Shown here piece by piece: positions 37,858-62,145 of a DNA stretch of 64,000 nt. Position numbers and translations under genes: made by a program. The DNA comes from Marsupella aquatica. Its lineage: Eukaryota; Plantae; Marchantiophyta. The notes below the pieces were generated by a model. That model saw nothing but the letters and a program-made list of their open reading frames with translations. It ran no database searches and had not been told where the DNA came from. Position 1 is the first letter of the stretch. Each line of letters begins with the position of its first letter. Location: positions 15,312,476-15,376,475 of the forward strand of contig OZ316896.1 of the NCBI GenBank assembly GCA_973895155.1, written 5' to 3'.

Positions 37858-38325
37858 GTCGTCGTCGTCGTCCACTCGCTTTTCGCAATGGAGAAGGAGG
37901 ATCGGACCGGAGCTGACCCGAGCCAAAGAGCCGAGGCTCGTCGTCGTTGTTCACTCGCTTTTTGGAATGGAGAAGGAGGAGCGGACCGGATCTGAGCCGA
38001 GCCAAAGAGCCGAGGCTCGTCGTGGTCGTCCACTCGCTTTTTGCAATGGAGAAGATGGTGCGGACCGGAGCTGAGCCGAGCCAAAGAGCCTAGGCTCGTC
38101 GTCGTTGTCCACTCGCTTTTTGGAATGGAGAAGGAGGAGCGGATCGGAGCTGAGCCAAGCCAAAGAGCCTAGGCTCGTTGTTGTTGTCCACTCAATTTTT
38201 GGAATGGAGAAGGAGGAGCGGACCGGAGCTGAGCCGAGCCAAAGAGCCAAGTCTCGTTGTGGTCGTCCACTCGTTTCTTGCAATGGAGAAGAAGGTGCGG
38301 ACTGGAGCTGAGCCGAGCCAAAGAG
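37858..38325. repeat. 79-bp minisatellite, 6 copies, just upstream of eIF4A-III
   Basis: Unit GTCGTCGTnGTCCACTCGCTTTTTG(C/G)AATGGAGAAGGAGGAGCGGACCGGAGCTGAGCCGAGCCAAAGAGCCnAGGCTC. Confidence 0.95.
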
Positions 38326-38383: not shown

Positions 38384-38505
38384 GGAGTAAATAATAGTTT
38401 AAGTACCTAATTTGAAGGAAAAAGGACCAATTTACTAAAACTATTATTCATTATGTCGCCTTCAAATTGAGCAAAATTAATAACTTGCCCCCTAAACTAG
38501 TTTTA
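38384..38505 (+). mobile_element. Mutator/MITE-type terminal repeat, copy 1
   Basis: AATAATAGTTT...ACCAATTTACTAAAA...AAAATTAATAACTTGCCCCCTAAACTAGTTTT is repeated at 58598-58712. The GAGTAAAT start and CCCCCTAAACTA are typical of MULE-derived MITE ends. Confidence 0.6.
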
Positions 38506-46954: not shown

Positions 46955-47547
46955 AGGATATCAAGTTCACAAATTATTCCATGCGGCTTATTGAACTTTG
47001 AAGATCCTCGAGATGGAGAGGGATAAAGAGGTAAAAGACGATTTTGTCACATCGCAGGACTATGAGAAACTTTGCAAATAAATAAATGTCGAAGTTAGGG
47101 ACAGGCCCTGGATGTCGAGAAACTTTGTTGGAGGGCTTGTCCTGATTGCTGATGCATTTGTGCTGCAGGAGATTGTCGTCGCTCTGTTACTGCTAGCGGT
47201 TGAAGGGTCGGGATGAAGATCTTTGTTCATATGTGATGTGTGGGGCACTTGTCGGCCGCGTACATTCTTTGTTTGGACGTGGGTGGAACATGTTCAGTCG
47301 TTCGGTAAGCAGTGACTAGAATCCAATATTTTGGGTATAAACACCGTGCTAGCAAATAGTAAATAGATATTCTCATACAACATCAGAGGAAATTTCTTGA
47401 CGATTTCACACAAGGACTCCAATATATTGCCACGAAATATGAAGTCGAAAAAAAGTCATACAATAAAACAACACTTTAAGAACTCACACTTCTGCCCATT
47501 AGAAAAGACAAACTACAATTGTAGCTGTTCAATGATAAAGCAACAGT

Positions 47548-50500
47548 CTACGTTCTCGTTCCCAACTGCCTATCAAGTATGTAACGGACTTCTCCCAACG
47601 TTAGAATTGGCTGGCTACATAATGTCGAATCGAGCACATCCAATTTGAACACATTCTTGAACACCCAATACACATGTTTGCAAGGCATGTAAGGCTTCCG
47701 ATAAGTATGCTGACGATAGAAATCCTTGCAAGAGCAACATGGGAAACAACAATCTGAACCCAATAAGAGGCGACTGATCTCTCATGTTCATGGGTCCGGA
47801 TACAAAACTATTTCCCCGACGCATTTCCACTCGTGATCTCTCTCTCTCCAATGACCCTCATCACTTCTTTTTCAGAGGCTTCAATTCTCTTCAAATGTGT
47901 TTGGGTAAGATGCACTCTTTGCAAGCATTTCTTCCTGTTCCTTGAAGCGCACCTCACAGATGGGTCAGTTAGGTTGATCCTCTCCGGGAAAAGATTGACA
48001 TCAATCCGTAACGTAGAAGGCAACGGTGCTTCGATTTCATCTCCACGGCCTTCGGAGAGAATAAGTCCTTGTTCTTTCAAAAATTGAATCTCTGCTCCAG
48101 AAAGATTGGTCCCTCTAGCAATTGGGAGATGTGAAGGAACATTGGGAACGTTCGTCTCCTTGTTGTGCTTTGGTGATAGTGGTTGTTGGGGCAAAACCAT
48201 ATCTGATTGTTATAAGGTTGCCCCCTGAACATTCTGCATCCTCTCACAGATATTGCAACAACACCATTTGGATTCGGAAGGCCAACCTTCTTTACTCGAT
48301 TTTGACATTCATCACGACTACCTCCCCGTCCAAGGGTTCCGTTACACACTGGACCCGCACCCCGTTTTGAGGTCCAACGCAACTGCCAGGCACCGGGAGG
48401 TACTTCACTTTCCATTGGGGAAACTGAATGACAATATGCAGTCTCGACAGGTCTTGCAGGCGTCACTGGTGGGACAGAGGATCTCGTTGCTCGACGCGTA
48501 GGTGTGTCAATGACCACAACTTCCTCAGAAGCATCGCTTTCTGACAAATTATGGACCGCATCAATTCCACCGGCTGAAGGCGTAGAAGGCAATTTCTCAA
48601 AATCAGTGGAATGCAGGTTTCTCCTTTTCAACCTTTTGTATTTGGTGAAGTAACAAGGATGGTATCATGCCTGTGCGAGTCTTCTGCCGAGACGTTCCCA
48701 GTTGCATGTCCTTTTCGTTTCACCGATCGAGTTACAACATCACCATTCAATGGAACACTTCTTTCCAAATCAAACTTAGTAGTGTTCGACAGGAGGAGAT
48801 GGGTGGCTTCCTCAAAGAGACGCGGTGACCCCGCCAGGTCCGCCGATCTGAAGGCAAGCTCAAAAATAGTTGGGCCAGTTCCTTTGCTCAATCCCCTTTT
48901 GTATGCAGTATAAGCAGCAATTGAGCAACCGCTCTATTTTGGTCTGTTTTGCATCCTTCAAACAGACCAACCTTTTTTTCTGTTGCCATGCTTTCATTCC
49001 AGCATGCCTAGATTCCGAACCAGTACAATTAGGAATCATCCCAGCCTCTTCGGCACTCTTGCTCTGAAACATTGCACGCAAGGGTTTAGTACATGTAAGA
49101 AATTGCACACAAAAGTGGCAACACAATGGAAATAACAGTAGCGCCAGACGCTAATAAACTGATGATGATATTTCCATGTAAAGAACCGTTTAACACAGAA
49201 TAAAGGTAGTCCTTACATCACTCATAGTCCAAACGGATTATTAGCGCTCGGCGCTACTATTGCGGATAAGGAACTCTTCTATCTCACACATGCTTCACTA
49301 GCGCCGAGCGCTATTAATGGGAACATGCATCCTAGAGCAGTGTATAACTCACCAGTCTTATGAAGTTCCCCATTGTCTCCATCGGACAACCCACCAAGAC
49401 AGCCACCCTTGCAGCATCCAAAGTTTGCCTGAGTGACAATTGCTAGACCTCCACCAGTCATCGATTTCCCTCGAGATTCGATATGCTTTCAAGAAAGTTG
49501 GCGCGTTCCGAACACGATCCCACATCTCCTTGTGCTCTCCGTGCTTTCCATCTTTTACACCTTCTCGGGAATGACGATGAAAAGATTGGAAAAAATGAAA
49601 GGCATCTGATCTTTCTCGCTCTGGGTCGGGTACACCGTCAAAGAACATGTTTCGAACAGCATTCCAACCAGCCTGAGCATTGTCCGCCATGAATCCCCGA
49701 ATTGTAACATCCTATAAACCATTTTCATTGGCAACCTCTAACATCAAACGCCAGGCTCTCTCTAGAGATTTTGCATCTTTGGCCTTTAGCTCACAAGTGA
49801 ATATGGTGCAAAGTGCCCGATAATGATGATCATATACATGGGCACTAAAAGTAAGCCAATCTGCCGTGCTTCGATGCATCACGTCAAAACTTACCCATGA
49901 ACCCTCTAACAACCCACCAGGTTTCATTCTTTGGAGCAGGTCCAGACCACTCCCGTCACCTTTTCCGGTCATTTTAAAGATATGAGCACTCTCGTCCCGA
50001 CAGCCTTGACCAGGGAGCAAGAACCTATGAAGAAAAGGCAGTCGGATACACTTTTGCATCCTCACAAGAAATTCCAGTTCCCCTTTCCCCTTCTGATCTT
50101 GACGGACACTCCTTAACACGGATGCAAACTTCTGAGGAGATGCGACGACCATTAGGGACTCCCAGATTTCCTTCTCTTCTTCAAGAGAGATTTCTTCAAC
50201 AGAGGCCTCGCAAAATGTATTTGTCAATGTCTCAGTCGCAGAGTTTTTAATCCCTGTTGGGGATGCCATGGGGTTTGCAGTGAATCCCTTCTCCAGATGA
50301 GACCTTGCAACCTTTTCTGCCTCCCTCGAAAAGACCCATCGACTGGGATGATTGTGAAATCCCATATGAACAGCTAGTCGCAACATTGGGCCAAAGACTT
50401 AATGTCAACTTTTGCAGATGGATACATGTAGAACATTAGAGCAGGGCAGGCCTCAACGCACATCGGAGGTTCAGAGCAATGGTGACAAACAACTCCACCT

Positions 50501-51351
50501 TCGGAGATCAATTCCCCAACTCGGAATGGGCCTGAAAGTTTTGGGGTTCTTGCCCACATCTCATTATTTCAAAACTTGTTGTCTTTCCACCACAAACAAG
50601 CATTATTTCGACACTGCAGCGATCCCGTACACTGGACTTTCCCGAAATCCCACATTTTCTTTGGAAGAACATTTGAAGACGTTTTCACAATCCGAGTCCA
50701 ATAATAACAATCCTTACCACGATCCATATCTTTCAAACGTTCACCTTTTGCGTTCACACAGTCTACCGGGGGTAACTCAAAAACCACATTCCCATTGTAA
50801 GATGTGGGAAGACTAGGCACTACGTGATGAACAAAATCACTCCCCCTTATAAACCGAGACAATTCACTATGACCTTTGGATTTCAAGATTGTATCCATTG
50901 CACTCTGCCGGTACACAATCAAAGGCACAATCATTTCTCGATCCGCATTAGACTCCTTTTTAACCTCGGATGGGTAAACTGGAATCTTCTCTCCGAGAGT
51001 AGTTGTCGCTTGCTTATCATCTCCAGAACTTTCCGAGAGTTCGATGACATCAAGTTCAGCCGCTGTGGGAGGACGAGTATAGGAGGCCCCAGAATCTCTC
51101 AAAACAAAAACCTCATATTCTTTCTGAGCCTCCAGAGTCCAATATCTTTGACCATGAACAACATCGTAGAAAATTGGAGTCTCCCCCAAACAAACCGACA
51201 CTAACAAGATCGCTAAAATAGACTCCTTGGCGACATCAAATCTCACTCCCAAATATTCCTCTGAAACACGCTTTGATTTAGATGATTCAAGGACGGGAAT
51301 TGTGATTACATCCCGAGTGTCCTTCCTCGTGACAACGATATTTTGAGCCAT
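47548..51351 (-). pseudogene. Mutator-like (MULE) transposase with N-terminal zinc finger and C-terminal SWIM finger, disrupted
   Basis: CTGSLQCRNNAC...CHHC...CPA...RLAVHMGFHNHP (GCM/WRKY-like finger); SFDVMHR..WLTFSAHVYD..LCTIFTCEL; FMADNAQAGWNAVRNMF..FHFFQS (MULE core); CSCKDF..PCKHVYWV (SWIM). In-frame stops at 50569 and 49712, frameshifts near 50386 and 48880, and an intron at ~49.09-49.35 kb. Confidence 0.8.
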
Positions 51352-52132
51352 GGCTTCAAAAGAGGGATATGCATTTGCCCCACGCGAAATGAAATATGTT
51401 TATCATGAGATTCGAGTACGAGAAGTAAACGTTCCCATTCTCATTATAGAGTCGTTATAGATTTGGACGCACTCCATCAATGACGTTTTGTCGTCTTACC
51501 AATGGCAAGATTTGGGTTCATAGTTATTAGCGCCTGGCGCTACTTCTAAGTGTAAAACACTCTTGGGTGAGGACTACAAATGCCAATAATAATAGCGCCT
51601 GGCGCTACCTCTGGGTGCAAACATTCTTGGGTGAGGAGTACGAAGGCAATAAATAATAGCGCCTGGCGCTACCTATTTCAATGGACTTGAAAACATTCAA
51701 TGGAAGGATAAGTACGATAACGCGATACAGTACGAGTCATTAAGTTGGCACGCTTGAAGATCTCCACTGGATCTTCGCGAATCCGATCCGCCCGGGTCCA
51801 AATGTGTCAGAGAGGAAGCGTCCATGAAAGTTATATCAGAGGGTCCTCTTCAAAGTGGGTACCCAGGACCAAGTGCGAACTCTCCTTATATCTAGTCATT
51901 CTCCTCCGATGTCCTCATTGTCAAGCCATTCTTCATTGAGTCGTAGCTGTGGCTCATCTTTCGGGCGCGTGGTTTCCGTTCTTGCTTTCGGGCCCAGTTG
52001 TTCTTTTTTGCTTTTGTGCGCGTTCTTGTTCTCCTTCTCGTCCTCGTTTCTCATTCTCGTCCTAGTTCACGCTGTTGTCCTCCTTCACGTTCTTGTTCGC
52101 GCTTCTTGTTCTCGTCCTCGTCCTCACTTTTA

Positions 52133-52561
52133 ATGGCACCTCCAGGAGGGAAGGCAAAGGAGGAGGCACTTGTCCCGAGCGACACCGACCGGGAGACCCC
52201 CGCATCAAATAGCTTACCGCCTTGGCCGAATGCCGAGAGGACGACGGTTCCAGTCTCGAAGAAGGGGAAACTCATCTCAAAGACGAAGAATGCCCCAACT
52301 GTGGGCCGCAGCGAAGGATCCAATCGGCCAAATGCGAGCGGCCCAACTTCTGTTCCCGCTAGGGATATCACCCCTGCTTCAGTCGGCCATCCAAGAGCTG
52401 ACACTATCTGCACGGGAGTCTCTGTATCTTCTTCATCCATTGAGAGTGATCATTCTTCGAGCGAGGACTCATCACCGAGCAAGCGAGGATTTGCGTGGTA
52501 TGGATCGAGCGACTCGAATGACGACTCCGATGCATACAAGCCAAGTTGGTGGGAAGACTGA
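52133..52561 (+). CDS. Short low-complexity S/P/D-rich ORF inside the transposon
   Basis: ATG-initiated MAPPGGKAKEE...SDDSDAYKPSWWED. No recognisable domain. Confidence 0.3.
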   Translation: MAPPGGKAKEEALVPSDTDRETPASNSLPPWPNAERTTVPVSKKGKLISKTKNAPTVGRSEGSNRPNASGPTSVPARDITPASVGHPRADTICTGVSVSSSSIESDHSSSEDSSPSKRGFAWYGSSDSNDDSDAYKPSWWED

Positions 52562-52866
52562 TTTCCCGTTGTCAGAGCGTATCATTCGAGTGTTGGAGAG
52601 ACTTGGAGGATCCATTGAGGTTGATAGGATCTGTTTCCACTCATTTTTTTCCGATAGAAAATCCATACCGTTCCTTCCTCGTATGCCGGATTTCTAGTGT
52701 ATTGTAACATTTTGTATATGAATGGCACAGCCGTTTGTTTTTACCTCGGTGTCAATGCTTTTGAATTCAAAAGACCAAGCTTTAATTTCGGGTTCTACTC
52801 CCGTGTTTGCATTGTATTTCTGAATGCGAACCTGAGCTATTTCTTTGAAATGGCCGTAAACACTCG

Positions 52867-53085
52867 GCTTATAATGACCCAATTCAAATAAAGAGTGAGG
52901 AGGAAGAAATACTGGTAAAAATCAAAAAACGTGAGGCTGAGATCACCTATTTTGAAAAAAAAAATACTGAACAAAACCATAGTGGCCAAGAACGCCCCAG
53001 ATATTCTATGGAAAATAGAAAACGTCGAAGTAAGCTTCGGCTTATAGATGGTAAGGTGGGGTGATAACGGTCGATTTATTTTCAT
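52867..53085 (-). pseudogene. sdh3: NUMT: 5' part of mitochondrial sdh3
   Basis: MKINRPLSPHLTIYKPKLTSTFSIFHRISGAFLATMVLFSIFFFKIGDLSLTF...LNWVIIS closely matches the recalled liverwort mitochondrial Sdh3; truncated after ~73 codons. Confidence 0.9.
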
Positions 53086-53110
53086 CTTTTTAGTTGACTC
53101 CGATTTTGAT

Positions 53111-53138
53111 TCAAGGTGACAGGATTTGAACCTGTAAC
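53111..53138 (-). pseudogene. trnP: NUMT: 3' fragment of a mitochondrial tRNA, probably trnP(UGG)
   Basis: The minus strand reads GTTACAGGTTCAAATCCTGTCACCTTGA (T-arm + acceptor stem) ~25 nt upstream of the sdh3 ATG. trnP-sdh3 is a conserved bryophyte mitochondrial gene pair. Confidence 0.7.
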
Positions 53139-53983
53139 TGCTGTCAATGTTTTTACTAGCATTCGGCGCTATTATGAGAAACAAAGTGTCTATAACACTG
53201 TCGTGAATGTCTTATCTCTAAAGTATTTTTGATAGCGTTGGGCGCTATTAATGAAAGGAATCACAAGTCAGACCCGTTCGGAGTTATTTTTACTTTTATT
53301 TCAACAAATTCTGTTCAATTGATGTGCATTTAAATAGCGTCAGGCGCTATTGTAATTCATTGGAATATTTGTTGAATGAATGGGTTCATGTGGTCATGTT
53401 TGTTGTCATTGGACTCCGATTTCATCATTTATTTGAATACTAGCGCCGAGCGCTACTAAAGTTGGCTTGTCGACACCTGCACAAAATTGGAAAATTTATA
53501 GACAATTGTGTTGATAGTACTGCCCATAGCTACATTAAGATGGTTTTTCAGATACATTTGAAAGTATGTCACTTGTATAATAGCGCCTGGCGCTATCCAC
53601 AACTACCGACACTGATGTGGTTCCAACGGTCACTTTCCAACAGTAATATTATAGTAGATTGAGGTTCACGGAACCCTTTTTGCTTTTGTCTAGGATGAAA
53701 GTCCAATCGGAGAATGCCATCTGTACTTGGGACCGTTGTAATCGAATGGCTGGTTCTATTGTATCGGTGTCTTAATACGAGGTGGAGATCGCTCGTTTGG
53801 GATAATTTAGTCCGTCTACGCGCTCAGACCTCGGACTGTATGAGTTTGTCAAGTGCGTATGTGCGTCCTTTATTGGTCCCGTACATTTTGAGACGTGATC
53901 GTGACAAGAACTGCACGACGCGTACGACAGTGCCGGGTGGTTGAGTCGCTCTCCACGACAACTTTTGGCTAGGTGATACAAGA

Positions 53984-56900
53984 ATGGGGGAGGCTGATGG
54001 TGGTCATTCTAAGTCCTCTCAGCCTTCGTTCGCTGGTTCAGTATACACCCGTCGCGTCACTCGATCGACTACGTCCCTGTCAACTTCCGAAGCTGAATCT
54101 ACACAGCCCTTCCCGAGGTCGAGGAGAGGGAGAATGGACCCTAAGGACGTCTCCATGGGTGAAGTCAGTGACATAGGCTTATCGATGGACGAGGTAATAT
54201 CAAAGCACGCATTGTCGTTCGGGAAGGATTTTCAAGGATTCGATATGGAGCCACCTCGAATTCCTCTTTGTAGATTGCTCCCCATGGAGGTTGTTCGAAC
54301 CTTACAGAAAGAAAGTGCATCGATCGAGAAGTTGAAAGAATCATTCCGTGTCACCGGGTACAACTCGCGCATTGGGATGCCTTTCTACGTTCAGCCTGCA
54401 AATGCCGATGGGGTACGCGAGATCCGGGACTCTTGGGATCCAATCTGGGTCGCAGAGAACGACAAGTTTGAGGAAGAGTGTGATGCGGACCCAGCGTTCC
54501 ATATTCTAAAAGATACAATGTTTTGTGTGTTTGACGGAAATCATCGATTGTACTCGTGGTCAATCGTCACGAGGGAGAATCCGGACAACTTGAAGTATCA
54601 TCCTCGTGTGATTTGCGTCATTTTCAATGGTGACAGAGGTTTGCTAGTTGAGCTCGAGGCGGCAATGCACACCGTGAACCTGTAAGTTCTATTCGTTAAC
54701 TGTTGTTACCCCTGTCATTCATTTTGGACCAAACATGCTTTGCGAAAGTGTTCATTCCCCAATTTTTGCTAGCGCCCGGCGCTACTAATTCCTTTTCATT
54801 GCATCCAAGCTTGGACAAGCAGTTGTCAAGCCTTCCTAGATTCTTGACGCGGACAGAATTTCCTGAATTCTGTCGCGTGATCTTGATCACTATAAGCCAC
54901 TCATCAACAGCGCGAACATGGCAAAGTTTGAGGCGATCCAAAAGAAGACGAGAAAGGGGTCTTGGTTTACACATAAAATGCCACAGGATGCTCTCATCTA
55001 CATTCTGTGTGTGGACAAAATCAAGTCTTACTCAAATCAATTTAAGTCTGATATGGCTTTAGCCAAAGCTCAAGGGGCTTCTTGGTCAGAAGAGGAGACC
55101 ACAAAGAGGCATGAGGCAATGATGAAGGAGGCGACCAAAGATTGGTCGATCAAAGTGACGAAGATCACCCCTTTACTTCATCCGAATTTTGGAGATTATT
55201 TGGGAACCTGTGCTGAGATGTATCCCGTAACTGAGAAGAACAAACGGGAGAAGAAGCCAGACACAGTTGTATGCACAATGGATCGAGCCAGGTTGTTTAC
55301 TGCTATTTCATACCTAGATCCAAAATTGAGGTGCACCCTTCTAGTAGCCCACTGCACTCCCGAGATTCGGAAACAGTTTTTCCATCCTGAAAGTGTCAAC
55401 GACGAGCCTGTGAAGCAGTGGTGCCATACATGGCATACTTGGAATTCTGTGGAGGGAATTGCAACTGGAATGCTTCACACTTCCTTCAAACAGATTTCTG
55501 ACCGGATGCCGGCTGACCGTCTCACAAAGTCTGGGTGTGAGTCAATGGAGGCCATGCTTAAGATCATTCTCGATGAATTCAGAAACGTTGGGGATCTTGT
55601 CAAGGCAAAATTCTTCAACAACTTGTGGCCTTCCAAATATGCGGACAAGGAACATTACACAAAGCGGAACCGGAAGAGAGCCAAACGATATCTATACCAG
55701 TTTTACATGTGGACGGAGCTTAGATCTCCTGACACTCTGTGGGCATACCCGACTGCATTTCAGAAATGGGTGTCTATCGAAGAGGGAGACGCTCTTGCCG
55801 ACCTTTATTCGATGTACCAGCGGAGGGAAAGTTTCCACCACGTTCATTATCGGAGTGGGAGAGACTTCACTGTCCGTGGTACCTCGACACAGACAAATGG
55901 GATTTACCATTCGACGAAGCTGAGAAGGATGCCTTCATGAAGTTGTAGGAGTCCCAGATCCCTGCCAACTATGTGTCTGCAATGAAGCAAGGTCTCCAGT
56001 CTGATGTTGACAAATCTGCATCTGAGTTACAGAAGAATTGTGAGTCTCTTGTCATGCACGTTGACCGAAGCCGTAAGCCAAGAGCAAAGGCGAAGAATGA
56101 GTCAGCTGCACCAAGTGACTCCACAAGGTCCTTCAAGAAAAGTGAGTAGTCTAAGCGCTTTTTGGTTACTTGTTGGCGCTGCTTATGCAGGAGTTTCATT
56201 AGGAAATTCCTTTGATTAATAGCGCCTGGCGCTAGTCTGAAAGGTTGGACTCATTCAAGTTTCTGTGCCTAACAGGAGGTTAAAAGTCTGACACGGAGGT
56301 CCCGGCTGCCGAAGGGAAGAATGATGCAACTCCTCAGGCATCGGAGGCAAACACTGGAGCTCAAGAAACCCCGGATCAAGGGATCCCGGATGGTGCTGGC
56401 AAATCCATTGTCCCTCTTGACGCAACTAGCACGAAGAAAAAGAAAAAGAGAGGCGCCGGTGAGGACAGAGCAACATCATCTACTCGAGACGTTATTTCCT
56501 GTCGACTCTAGAGAGATGTCGGGAATTTTAAGCGAAGGTGTTCTAGACACTGTTTTGTGGAGTCCAATTTAAACGAATTTTACGATTTGGTATTTAACAA
56601 GGGGATGAAGCCCATGTGGGTTACTAAAGTTGAGGCCTAGGGAAAGGAATTGGTAAAGTCAGGAGACAGAGAGAAGGGAGTAATGCGTGGCGGAAAAGAG
56701 AGGGGCTTTGGTGTGGATGCTGGTTTCATCTACATTCCCACTGGATTAAAACCAACACTTCTTGATCGGAAGGTTCCCAAGTGGAACCTTCAGGATTACA
56801 CTATTCCCAGCTCTTTCTTCCGAGCCATGGAGCCGTTCCTTGCAGACAATGGCCTACTTGCAATTTTACACAGAGGAGACTATGATCAGGTATCTGAAGT

Positions 56901-57729
56901 GATTGCGGCTTGCCAGGATTCTAAGTGTTTCCAGTGTATTTCAACCCACCATGTGGTCATGACTACACCAATGTATAGGCCCCGATCTAATACTCAGGTA
57001 ACAATTCCTCTTGCACATACTAGCGCCCGACGCTACTATCAGCATTCGCAATATCTACAATTCACTTATCTTTCGTAAGGATGAATGGTTGACTAGCGCC
57101 AAGCGCTAATATATGTGTCTGTTTTCTTATACTGCCTTCATTGGGAAACTGTGTTGCAGATATTCACACTTACTCTTAATATATTTTGCCGCATTTCGAC
57201 AAAGGGAAGGGTCCCGAAAGACCCCAAGTTCTGGCCACTATCGAATGAAGAAGACCCTTCCGTCACTAACATTATTGGGTTTTCGTTGCCGCGACATGAC
57301 CCGACTCCTGAGCTCCAATTTGCAGGAAATTCACAATTGCCTGTGGGTTTCATGCAAACTATTTTGGAATTGGTGACTCTTCCTGGAGATATCGTTATGG
57401 ACTGGACAGTAGGTTCCGGTAGTACGTTTGTGGCTAGAGATTATTCTGGTCGCTTTGTTGTTGGGCTGGAAAATCGGCCAGAGTTTGTTGATACTTCCGG
57501 TAAGGTCTTCCTCGATCTTTTACAGAACAAAGAAGTGGTTGCACCAACTCCTCCTAAGAAGATTCCTGGAAGTAAGAAGCAGGACAGGCTCCGTGCTATT
57601 CTAAATTTTGATTCGGAAGACGAGGATGAGGGTGGCAATGCTTCTCAGCAATCTGAAGATGATGAGGTGTCGAACAATGTGGTGGACCTTGGATCTGGAG
57701 ATGAGGACAGTGAAGAGTCAGAAGAGTAA
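53984..57729 (+). pseudogene. Spliced gene: N-terminal ParB/sulfiredoxin-like domain fused to a C-terminal beta-class N4C/N6A DNA methyltransferase-like domain, disrupted
   Basis: Exon 1 has IEKLKESF..GY and VFDGNHRLYSW (ParB-like DGxHR). GT-AG introns at 54682-54910, ~56142-56276 and 56998-57159; the first and last were checked in frame. C-terminal VDAGFIYIPTG...FLADNGLL...QLPVGFMQTILELVTLPGDIVMDWTVGSGSTFVA..SGRFVVGLE follows motif order IV..X-I-II. A frameshift (~55.8 kb) and stops are present. Confidence 0.8.
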
Positions 57730-58597
57730 TTTTCTTTAGCTTTCTTTCTCTCATTGTATACTTTTTTCCAAAGAACTCCTCTACTCCCTTTTGTCTAGAA
57801 AATTTTCCCGATTTCCCGACTTCGACTAAAGAACTCCAGTTCAAATTCTCAGGTCAGAGTGGAATCTTCGGAGGCATTTTCAACTTCGAAGGAACGTCTC
57901 TAGGAACGTTGTACAGACCCCGGAGAAGCCATTTGTTCTCCCCTCTTATGCTGAAAAGGCGGCACGACGGGCAGATTCAGTCAGGACGCTTACTTGGGAG
58001 AGTAAGGGTCTTAGACTCCGGAGAGGCTCAGATAGAAAGTTTGTGCAGAATCACTTCGTAGATGATATTGCAAAATCCAAGTATGTGGACGACAAAGCAG
58101 AGTCCACTAATAGATCAGAAAGTAGCGGTTCTAAATCGGGCTCAGAGTCGAGTGGTGGTTGTGGATCTGGTCTTTAGTTTTCCTTGTTTTATTTACCCAT
58201 TTATGGAGAACGACGACACTCAATAAGAACGCCGTGACGTGTCGGATTAGACTAGCGCCCGGTGCTATTACTGTAGCCGGTAGTTCAAAGAGGTTTTTAT
58301 TTGGTTGTTTTCCTTATAGCGCCCGACGCTAGTATAAATGTACTCAATGGCCGCTTCACGTCCAATACATGTGACAATATTTTCATACCCTTCGGTGTCT
58401 TTTTTTGGGTGCACATTTGTTGGTATGAGTTTTGCTGTTTGTTGTTTGTTGTTTACTGTTTGCTGTTTGCTGTCACGGAGAGATCCCCCTGGAGAAAGCA
58501 TATGTGGAGAAAACGTATGTGGAGAAAACGTATGCGCAGAAAAAAAGTTTGGAGCCATTTGGGGCTCCCACCTCAAAGCTGAACTTTAAGTTCAGCC

Positions 58598-58712
58598 AAT
58601 AATAGTTTGTACCTTAATTTGAAAGAAAAAGTACCAATTTACTAAAATTATTCTTTATTATGTCACCTTCGGACTGAGAAAAATTAATAACTTGCCCCCT
58701 AAACTAGTTTTG
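58598..58712 (+). mobile_element. Mutator/MITE-type terminal repeat, copy 2, truncated on both sides
   Basis: Direct homolog of 38389-38505. It abuts the transposon hairpin on the left and the LINE poly(T) on the right. Confidence 0.65.
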
Positions 58713-60410
58713 TTTTTTTTTAATTAAAATTTATTCCGCGTGAACCCCACGGATGGGGGAAGCAGCAGGCCAGAAGGCAAAATAAGGGGGGCAACAAGGA
58801 AAGTGACACCACAGCCGGTCAAAGTCGAACCATGCGCAGTGGCACAAAGCAAGACAGAGTTAAGACCGGGATTCTAAGTAAGACACAGTAGGTCAATAGA
58901 GCACTAAACCCACTGAGTGATTGGGGCCCTAACGAGTACAGTATTCCACTAGGCAAAACTAACAAGTAATCAACCATAGCTACATCTGCAATTACTGTGG
59001 GCAGGCAGAACCGGACTCAGATTTATGGGTCTGGTAGTATTACAGGTATTCCAGTGCCAACCCGATTTAACCTACACAGCACAATCAGACAGAGAATAGA
59101 CGTCTCACTTTGCTCCTGATAATCCTAATCTGTTCCTGCACTAGAGTATGCTTAGCCTGTGTGATCCTAGAAAGCTTATTTTTTGAACTAGTAGCAGTCG
59201 CCACTGCAGTATGGTGATCCAATGTTTCAGAGATGATCGGTATCTGATCAAAAACCCTTTTTTTGGACAGATCAAACGTCTGATCATTACGTGCATTCCA
59301 AATAGCCCACAGAATCTGATAAATCAAAAAGAGACGAAGTGTGCTCCAAGGGTTCTTCTCAAGCGATAAGAGGATTAACTCTACCAGATTCCGATGTGGT
59401 TGTATGATAGTACCATTTAACCAGGTCTGAGCTTCCAACCAACATCTCTGTGCATGTCTGCAGTTAGTGAATAGGCGGGGGATAGTCTCAATTCTCCCAG
59501 AGCATAAAATGCAAATTCCATCCGACTTGGCAATTCTCACTGCTCTGGATCCAGAGAACAGTCCCTGCGCCAGAACCCGCCATAAAAAAGTTTTTGCTCT
59601 AGTGGACAGATCTGCCGTCCAGATAGTCAACCAAATTTTGCTCCATTCTTCATCAGTATGGCTTACTTCCCATATTCTGTTCAGCCTGAGGTGGTCCGTT
59701 CCTTTAGGTCGCAGCATTTCGTAAACCCGCCAGTTTGGTAGGCCAAACTGTCTCATCCGTGTGTCCTTGTCAAGCCATTGCCATTGACAAGCGAGGGTAT
59801 CAAATCCACTTCCATGGAAAGCAGTACCATGTACCAACCTGATCAGTGAAAGACATAAGTTTTGATCTCCATCGATAATGCCTCTCAAGCGGTTCAGCCT
59901 GGTATCCAAGTGTCTCCAATCATCCCCAGCAAGGGACCAAAAGTCCCCCACCCTCCTGATTCCTAAGCTGCCACAAAGCCGGGTCAATGACACAATGGAT
60001 GCTTCAGGCAAATCATAAAAATCCTGAGAGCACCGGAGTAGATCCTCCAAAATCCAGTGTCCCGGGATCGCCTCAACACCAGGATGGAAGATCAGGTTTT
60101 CCCTAGCCAGTGCCCAAGCACCCCATAGTTGCCCTGTATAAGACAATTTCCCAAAAGATTGTGGTGAACCCAACAACATTAGATCTGTCATAGAATAGTG
60201 GTTCCTGCACACAGATCTGTAGTTTCTCCATTTTGTCAGTCGCAAGTTAACAGCAAATAGTTTAGCCCATTCAGTCTCCGGATTATCCAGAGCCCCGGTG
60301 AACCACTTACAGAGGAGTGCATCTGAATGACTCCTAAAGTCCTTCAGGCCAAGTCCGCCATCAACCTTGGGCCTGCACAATTTATCCCACGCCACCAGGG
60401 GTATTGTGAT
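58708..60410 (-). mobile_element. 5'-truncated L1-like LINE (ORF2 C-terminus, 3' UTR, poly(A))
   Basis: IPLVAWDKLCRPKVDGGLGLKDF, KTFLWRVLAQGL, CILC..ETIPRLFTNC (zf-RVT), LWAIWNARN; stop at 59085; plus-strand T-tract at 58708-58721. Confidence 0.9.
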
Positions 60411-60519
60411 GCCTAGACAGGAATCACTCGGCCGGTTAAGTGGGTAAAGCAGGAAGGCACCCTTGGAACACCTTAGTATAGTGACAAAACAAGGAAAATA
60501 TAAACAATTAGGGGCAACC

Positions 60520-62145
60520 ATGGAACCCGGGCCGAGGCCGGAGGTAAGGCTGAGGGTGAAAACCCGATTAGGGTTAGGGCGCGCTAAGCGTCAGCGGCTA
60601 GGAAGGATCAACGGGAAGAAGGACCGGCAGAGGAGAGGGGTAAGGAGCGCTTGCAGGAGATGGTGGCTCATTTGCGAGCACGAACTAGGCAGACGACTAC
60701 GGGAGGCCAACTACTGTCAGCTGCTTAGGCAAGCACTCGGGGAGAGAGTAGATACCGACGATCAACCTAAGGAGGGTATGAGCAACGTCAATCAAGCGGC
60801 ACATTTCTGGGGATGCCTGTTCGAACGGGCAACTGACTACATCAAGACTTACGAGGACGAGGAATCAGAAAGGGCAGCTCGAGAACGGCAGGAGCTCGCT
60901 CGATTGTGGGAGCTGCAGAAGACGGCTTTCTTAGGAGGCGAACTCATCAAGGACAAGTTCCTGTGGACGCCTACTTCCAATCAACTCGACGATCTTCTGT
61001 TTTGCAAAGACAGCGTCGTCGGCATCCGAGAGGCCATCAAGAACTGCAACGACATACACTGGGAATTAAAGGGTAGCACGGAAAGGTGGACCCAGGCAAC
61101 GGTGCTAGGAGAAACCTCCACGGCAGCAGAGATGAAGAGGAAGGGAGCCGTCAACGATGAAGCCACCCCGGCAAAAAGAACGAGGTCGGCGGCACCAAAG
61201 AAGCCAGCCGAGCAGCAGAGCAGGAGGCAGGGAGAAGCCGAAGAGGAGGAGGTCGATCCCATCAAGGCCATTCCAACCAGGGATGACACCTGGAAGGGCT
61301 GGGCGGCAACCCTACCGGTGGAGGTGCAACTACATTTTGCACGGGAGGAGGATGCATGCTTTACGGCCATGCAGACCAAGAAGTACCAAGGCTTCATGGC
61401 CGGATCCGGCTTGGAGGCCTTTGTAAGATTACCATGGCTGAAGCCGGAGGTACCGGAGTCAGACCTATTAGAATTCGTGGGGTCATGGGAACCCGAGACC
61501 AATTGCACGAGGATATATGGGAGGGATTTCTATCTTACTCCCAAGGTAATTGCCGAAGTGTTTGGCCTGCCGATAGGCAATAAGACCAAAGTTGATACCA
61601 GGAAGACCTTGCCTGACAAGGAGTTCCGGTCGTTCCCCGGGCCATCAACGAAGAATGGCTTCTTCCGGAACACCTGCACCAACCCGCACATAGGAGAGAT
61701 GATCGACTTCTTGCGGGTGACCATGCATTGTAACTTGCCGAGGGCAGAGATCGGCAAGGCACAGGTCTATCTGGCAGAAAGGCCAGACCCAAGCCGGGAC
61801 TACAACGGGTACCTCCTCAACCAATTGAAGAAGATCTTAAAGGAGGAGCAGCAGGTAATCGGCATGGGGAGCGTGTCGCGGCTTGGCTATCACATGCCGC
61901 TGTTGTGCCGGTATGCCAGAGGTCAGACTTTTGCCCCGGTACTTCCCCTGCAGGTAAGGGCACCCGAGGAAGCTCCAACGCCGAGGCCGTTGGCTGAGAA
62001 GCCTCAACCACCTGTTAGTCCTACGATCGAGCAGGTGTTTAGGCCCAGGAAGGAAGACTTGCCGATGCAGCAACCAGGCATGCAGAGTCTGCTGAAACTA
62101 CTGGAGAAAGAAAAGAAGGTGGACCTAGTCAGGCCCGCCTACTGA
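60520..62145 (+). CDS. Transposon accessory protein with a plant-mobile-domain-like region
   Basis: Intronless ~540-aa ORF. GLEAFVRLPW...LLEFVGSW....IYGRDFYLTPKVIAEVFGLP resembles PMD / plant transposon protein domains. Confidence 0.55.
   Translation: MEPGPRPEVRLRVKTRLGLGRAKRQRLGRINGKKDRQRRGVRSACRRWWLICEHELGRRLREANYCQLLRQALGERVDTDDQPKEGMSNVNQAAHFWGCLFERATDYIKTYEDEESERAARERQELARLWELQKTAFLGGELIKDKFLWTPTSNQLDDLLFCKDSVVGIREAIKNCNDIHWELKGSTERWTQATVLGETSTAAEMKRKGAVNDEATPAKRTRSAAPKKPAEQQSRRQGEAEEEEVDPIKAIPTRDDTWKGWAATLPVEVQLHFAREEDACFTAMQTKKYQGFMAGSGLEAFVRLPWLKPEVPESDLLEFVGSWEPETNCTRIYGRDFYLTPKVIAEVFGLPIGNKTKVDTRKTLPDKEFRSFPGPSTKNGFFRNTCTNPHIGEMIDFLRVTMHCNLPRAEIGKAQVYLAERPDPSRDYNGYLLNQLKKILKEEQQVIGMGSVSRLGYHMPLLCRYARGQTFAPVLPLQVRAPEEAPTPRPLAEKPQPPVSPTIEQVFRPRKEDLPMQQPGMQSLLKLLEKEKKVDLVRPAY

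Follow-up and report, generated by a model that had tools for sequence, protein, structure and literature searches.

A decayed Mutator-like element in the liverwort Marsupella aquatica carries a putative ParB-methyltransferase accessory gene and its own set of non-coding palindromes

We analyzed a 64,000-nucleotide stretch of the Marsupella aquatica genome (assembly GCA_973895155.1, contig OZ316896.1, positions 15,312,476 to 15,376,475 of the forward strand; hereafter the window) and found in it a dead copy of a Mutator-like cut-and-paste transposon. The element belongs to a mobile multi-copy family in which two genes, a transposase and an accessory gene, have been amplified together. The accessory gene encodes, over four exons, a DGNHR domain, a helical domain and a beta-class amino-methyltransferase fold, and 17 copies of a palindrome lie in the non-coding DNA of the element. 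We propose, with about even confidence, that dimers of the accessory protein bind the palindromes and spread by means of a ParB-like clamp, protecting the element from silencing, and that the methyltransferase fold is a weak or inactive enzyme. The features of the element are listed in Table 1.

The evidence for a mobile family came from four public sequencing runs. Depth was elevated from about 47.3 to 58.5 kb in all four, the spacer between the genes included. In run X1, the depth of near-identical contigs was 277-377 over both the transposase and the accessory gene, compared to 10 for the contig of the unique left flank, suggesting roughly 30 similar copies; this figure is a rough per-contig ratio from one run, and summed depth is not equal to copy number. 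At position 58489, 7, 5, 6 and 4 contigs from the four runs continued into flanks that differ from one another (agreement 0.48-0.58), and the right end of the element is thereby set at that position. The two ends are short imperfect inverted repeats, each beginning with GGG, in keeping with the short degenerate ends of MULEs (Mutator-like elements) of the non-TIR (non-terminal-inverted-repeat) type. The right end is thus confirmed, and the left end is probably at 47333, judging from the symmetry of the ends and from the unique flank contig, which stops at 47371. The original prediction, made from the sequence alone, had foreseen a mobile family, and this holds for both genes; its boundaries of 47548 and 58597 had to be moved to these positions. 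The consensus flanks of other copies from 58490 onward start with AATATTT or AATAGTT in three of the four runs, resembling the left flank of the window copy, and the likeness may reflect a target-site preference. Thirty proteins were looked up, and every relative with a species name was from a liverwort; the named relatives are 17 Riccia sorocarpa gene models (cluster members counted) on 7 scaffolds, distinguished by their lengths, and Calypogeia fissa proteins. In one Riccia model, P0052, the N-terminal part of the transposase (E 3e-21) is joined to accessory exon 2, suggesting that the two genes are linked in Riccia too.

The transposase core matched six relatives at 50-57% identity, and 14 when a profile was used, one of them from Calypogeia fissa. 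The acidic motif FDVMH was kept in all 13 relatives checked and GFMAD in 12 of them; the ESRH motif of exon 2 likely supplies the third catalytic residue. The Cys/His-rich N-terminal region may be GCM/WRKY-like. The original prediction of a Mutator-like element (MULE) transposase with a SWIM domain was partly borne out. The ten best family-bearing language-model neighbours of the core (Atlas) all belonged to the MULE/ZSWIM RNaseH-like family or clan, the best at 0.93, and a SWIM-like CxC...CxH motif was recognized by eye at 47548-47781. Pfam MULE (PF10551) and SWIM produced no match in the open reading frames of the window or in the 14 relatives, and we therefore call the element Mutator-like and not a proven MULE, though its neighbours are MULE/ZSWIM RNaseH-like clusters.

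The accessory gene is head-to-head with the transposase and contains introns, as predicted, and its four exons match, in the same order, successive parts of a Riccia sorocarpa protein of 1,207 aa. The DGNHR motif of exon 1 was found in the window protein and in 10 relatives. The Atlas neighbours of this exon, at 0.93-0.94, included a cluster with DUF3723 (31% of cluster members) and a cluster with ParB_N (11%). ParB domains follow the order strand-helix-strand...strand-helix-strand-helix. In the better structure model (me18b266b858e), the order of strands and helices is the one expected of the ParB/Srx fold, with the (D)GxxR arginine motif placed after a strand. Judged by one motif and a language-model match, the exon 1 domain is likely ParB. 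Exon 2 has 65 relatives, and the corresponding region was helical with high confidence in the predicted model of Riccia relative P0037; the fold-search matches of the whole model cover the helical part alone.

The methyltransferase part was detected by Pfam N6_N4_Mtase at 57097-57726 (E 1e-8, above the curated cut-off). Its best solved-structure relatives are beta-class methylases, and motif IV lies before motif I, which binds S-adenosylmethionine (SAM), as in the beta-class order. We compared motif IV in seven sequences, which read DLPT (three sequences), DMPT, DMPS, HLPS and, in the window copy, YIPT. In place of the catalytic motif (D/N/S)PP(Y/F/W), the relatives therefore have D[LM]P[TS] and the window copy has YIPT; the Asp is kept in five of the seven and the Pro in all. 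In a global alignment (98% probability) of a profile of six plant sequences to four phage/viral methylases, D[LM]P[TS] falls opposite DPPY, DIPY or SPPY. The aromatic fourth residue is present in all four phage/viral enzymes and in none of the seven sequences, and the HPxQKP segment is altered in the plant sequences as well. This aromatic residue is important for catalysis. Its absence from all seven sequences makes the writing of a mark doubtful and hints that this half of the protein may work by a route other than standard catalysis. The half with the SAM motif is the best-conserved part of the domain.

The sequence TAGCGC-N3-GCGCTA was found 10 times exactly and 16 times with at most one mismatch, compared to means of 0.00 and 0.02 in shuffled sequences. 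Allowing up to two mismatches gave 17 palindromes, which are confined to 49139-58331 and absent from the rest of the 64 kb, in agreement with the predicted number and its restriction to the element. Together they give the consensus TAGCGCC-N-GGCGCTA, from which they deviate 14 times, always by C>T or G>A. None of the 17 falls in a homology-defined exon, in an element of which 38% is non-coding (p about 8e-8), and all four introns carry at least one. The left 1.8 kb of the window copy has none. Three palindromes fall within a 64-65 bp tandem repeat, and most of the others lie in unrelated flanks. The metagenome contig L001, which has 66% amino-acid identity to the window transposase in its best segment and 55% in the middle part of exon 2, has an intron at the same position as the transposase intron. 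This intron contains three palindromes with the same half-sites and no spacer, that is, one base closer together; at most one site was found in any of 200 shuffles. The palindromes look functional because the diverged L001 keeps the half-sites in the same intron, and they appear to behave like conserved candidate binding sites; conservation beyond the family of the window copy is judged from this single locus, which is independent of that family. Run joints near ~47460 suggest an extra palindrome downstream of the transposase in diverged copies, at a place where the window copy has none.

Table 1. Features of the element, in window coordinates
Feature	Position	Strand	Remarks
Whole element	47333..58489	.	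11,157 bp; decayed copy of a multi-copy family; based on raised depth and ends
Left terminus	47333..47381	+	Short imperfect inverted repeat (GGG...CCGTG..AGCAAA.AG); inferred
Transposase exon 2	47548..49063	-	ESRH, linker, C-terminal SWIM-like CxC..CxH; several 1-bp frameshifts
Transposase intron	49064..49352	-	GT..AG; 3 palindromes (49139, 49242, 49299)
Transposase exon 1	49353..51351	-	Cys/His-rich N-terminal region, RNaseH-like core, acidic residues in FDVMH and GFMAD, DAFH motif
Divergent intergenic spacer	51352..53944		8 palindromes (51528, 51593, 51657, 53157, 53233, 53335, 53441, 53581)
Mitochondrial-type insert	52867..53138	-	272 bp; sdh3 fragment; Pfam Sdh_cyt E 2.6e-14; foreign to the family
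Accessory exon 1	53984..54681	+	DGNHR domain, ParB/Srx-like; start codon uncertain; 30% identity to Riccia P0074, E 5e-20
Accessory-gene intronic palindromes	54770..57108		54770 (intron 1), 56220 (intron 2), 57021 and 57094 (intron 3)
Accessory exon 2	54810..56141	+	All-helical domain and linker; frameshift at 55816; acceptor position approximate
Accessory exon 3	56276..56997	+	Linker and first half of methyltransferase fold; motif IV position reads YIPTG
Accessory exon 4	57160..57729	+	SAM-binding half of beta-class amino-methyltransferase fold; acidic tail
3' non-coding palindromes	58253..58331		Two palindromes
Right terminus	58420..58489	-	Matching imperfect inverted repeat and short tandem expansion

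The window copy is dead, with seven in-frame stops and several frameshifts. The stops, found in the frames scanned (those outside transposase exon 2), are located in transposase exon 1 (50571, 49714), accessory exon 2 (54837, 54864, 55946) and accessory exon 3 (56509, 56638); the stop at 56509 is missing from every run contig covering that position. Transposase exon 1 is frameshifted near 50386 and 49367. The comparison of the copy with the run contigs took in 40 of the 1,146 listed substitutions and 12 of the 42 listed indels, and the indels examined include 1-base deletions at 47751, 48629, 48920, 48972, 49367, 50386 and 55816, some of which could be assembly errors. A joint that skips the 272-bp insert was present in all four runs, and other copies are without it. 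The insert holds the 5' part of sdh3; another part of it resembles a fragment of a tRNA-Pro gene, and ARAGORN found no such gene there.

In the mechanism that we propose, a dimer of the accessory protein would read the two 7-bp half-sites in each intron and in the spacer. ParB proteins bind CTP and slide as clamps away from palindromic sites. Here the ParB-like domain would let the protein load and then spread along the element, and the methyltransferase-fold domain would engage DNA bases as a catalytically weak or inactive shield and not as a standard methylase. Host silencing would be kept off the element by this self-targeting protein, an effect like that of VANC on VANDAL elements but obtained from prokaryote-type parts. 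We infer every step of this mechanism beyond gene anatomy and site placement. The original prediction was that the protein 'modifies or shields' the DNA; the first verb has become doubtful with the D[LM]P[TS] or YIPT reading of motif IV, and the second is kept here.

Several results weigh against this proposal. Scans of the accessory protein and its relatives with Pfam, PHROG and NCBIfam yielded no ParB match. HHalign against six phage ParBs scored 17.0, inside the shuffled range (maximum 18.9), though DGNHR was paired with DGSRR, and Foldseek returned ParB 6sdk as a weak match at rank 38 (E 5.3). The predicted ParB-methyltransferase fusion is thus supported in its methyltransferase half and in the conservation of DGNHR, and the ParB fold was not recovered by these searches. 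An active enzyme would also be compatible with the conservation of the SAM motif and of the Asp and Pro in motif IV. Since all 14 changes in the palindromes are C>T or G>A, the window copy was probably methylated as 5-methylcytosine (5mC) at the very sites said to be shielded; this methylation may post-date the death of the copy. No exact target-site duplication (TSD), expected to be 8-11 bp in MULEs, was found at 47333/58489, and a separate repeat of ~110 bp adjoining the right end prevented us from establishing one; the best candidate is an AT-rich 7-of-8 match (47325-47332 and 58601-58608) that may be due to chance. None of the run contigs covers both genes in another copy, and the fusion in P0052 is same-strand, unlike the head-to-head layout of the window copy.

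We weighed our proposal against three other explanations. The accessory protein might be an active N4-cytosine (N4C) or N6-adenine (N6A) methyltransferase that uses an unusual D-x-P-T/S motif to write a protective mark on its own element. The whole fold is retained from motif IV to motif I, the Asp and Pro persist as described, the SAM half is the best conserved, and unusual strand-4 motifs have been noted in some eukaryotic clades (PMC4738411). However, the lost aromatic residue and the changed HPxQKP segment set these sequences apart from the phage/viral methylases, and a change of SPPY to APPA abolishes the activity of the rotifer N4CMT, although this is a double change and not a test of the aromatic residue alone (PMC8885841). 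We consider an active methylase unlikely, though it is the likeliest of the three.

The transposase itself might bind the palindromes, for self-activation or for the pairing of ends, leaving the accessory protein to act elsewhere, for example in target choice or in integration like MURB. Its Cys/His-rich N-terminal region and the position of the conserved L001 sites in a transposase intron are consistent with such a role, as is the report that the AtMu1 transposase activates cognate copies in a sequence-specific manner (bioRxiv 2026.08.24.746577). We nevertheless regard this as rather improbable, because the sites are spread over all introns and the central spacer and are not packed at the ends, the left 1.8 kb being free of them, and because inverted-repeat arrays accompany ParB-type accessory genes on unrelated transposases (bioRxiv 2025.02.11.637652). 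More improbable still is a reading in which the accessory gene is a passenger that does nothing for the element and the palindromes arose neutrally as local repeats expanded. MULEs do capture DNA, the window copy contains a mitochondrial insert, and three sites fall within a tandem repeat; but most sites have unrelated flanks, the half-sites are conserved in L001, and the accessory gene is co-amplified and has many Riccia paralogues.

Other sequences were noted next to the element. The ~110-bp repeat adjoining its right end (58490-58600) has short tandem units and two small hairpins and is multi-copy in the runs. A 115-bp AT-rich sequence is present twice in the window (58598-58711 and 38390-38504) with 89% identity and is possibly the end of a small mobile element. 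The minus strand at 58711-60590 holds the 3' part of a LINE-type (long interspersed nuclear element) sequence with a zf-RVT domain and an A-rich tail; 58725-58787 has a very high copy number in the runs. An open frame of 565 codons with no Pfam match (60448-62145, plus strand) lies at the start of a very high-depth repeat, and about six 79-bp units form a tandem array at 37859-38325.

The statement in the original prediction that no plant transposon with this architecture had been described was too strong, as the combination of a ParB-like and methyltransferase accessory design with a self-marking hypothesis has been proposed for transposons of brown, red and green algae (PMC12477816; bioRxiv 2025.02.11.637652). 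In Ectocarpus, the large DNA transposon Sola1-1_Ec32 has, on the other strand from its transposase, a gene of ~1,100 aa for a ParB-like and N4C/N6A methyltransferase protein, which has been proposed to bind the element that encodes it and to modify it (PMC12477816). The likeness is judged from the architecture, and the ParB label is unproven in our case. Sola1-1_Ec32 is a 21.5-kb brown-algal element with a Sola-1 transposase and a 4-bp TSD, whereas ours is an 11.2-kb land-plant element with a MULE-like transposase; its accessory protein lacks the aromatic residue of motif IV, and its introns all contain a defined palindrome. The Plavaka elements of the red alga Bostrychia (accessory genes PAG2/PAG3) combine a ParB-2-oxoglutarate (2OG) oxygenase, next to arrays of inverted repeats, with an N6A methylase encoded separately, and Mutator elements of Chondrus have homologues (bioRxiv 2025.02.11.637652). 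These and related red-algal Mutator/Zisupton elements share with ours a ParB-like domain fused to a DNA-modifying fold, arrays of inverted repeats and a putative N6A methylase in the cassette. They differ in the fusion of ParB to the oxygenase, in a methylase that is fused to SET and encoded apart, and in the tandem arrangement of the arrays beside PAG3, while the liverwort element has one fused gene and dispersed sites.

Among land plants, VANC binds motifs in the introns, intergenic and terminal regions of Arabidopsis VANDAL MULEs (PMC5735166), which resemble our element in their short degenerate ends, their accessory protein and the location of the motifs in non-coding DNA, partly in tandem repeats. 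The VANC motifs are different, 8-9 bp long and non-palindromic, and the activity of VANC, a sequence-specific loss of 5mC, has been demonstrated experimentally; the VANC-type Pfam family had no match in our accessory protein. Bacterial-type beta-class amino-methyltransferases are also known in eukaryotes from Marchantia MpDN4MT1a/b (bioRxiv 2021.02.12.428880) and bdelloid rotifer N4CMT (PMC8885841). These are host genes with an intact SPPY, and MpDN4MT1 has no extra domains, whereas the window gene is transposon-borne, multi-domain and without SPPY; the accessory protein is not MpDN4MT1, which has TSPPY. A land-plant ParB-methyltransferase transposon was not found in the available parts of the literature searched, including PMC12973397, PMC6446971, PMC6431247 and PMC4738411. 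The element is more than a chance meeting of its parts. Within that literature, the new features are the land-plant host, a MULE-like carrier with one fused gene, a site in every intron with a shift of spacing between families, and the altered catalytic motif.

The algal genes that combine ParB with a modifying enzyme are proposed to bind and mark their own elements, and this family extends the design to liverworts, close to a model that is amenable to genetics. The family also provides a precisely defined candidate binding site, the conservation of that site between families and a one-base difference in spacing that makes a clean test of specificity, none of which is stated in the algal reports consulted. 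A bolder version of our proposal, which we put forward as doubtful, is that a land-plant clade carries parS-like addresses. A ParB-type clamp would load at palindromes in every intron and drag along a methyltransferase fold with a new D-x-P-T/S active site, marking or masking the element against host 5mC, and each family would keep its addresses private by altering the distance between the 7-bp half-sites (1 bp here, 0 bp in L001) while leaving their sequence unchanged. If true, such a parS-like address system would be a second land-plant anti-silencing system, independent of VANC and testable in Marchantia.

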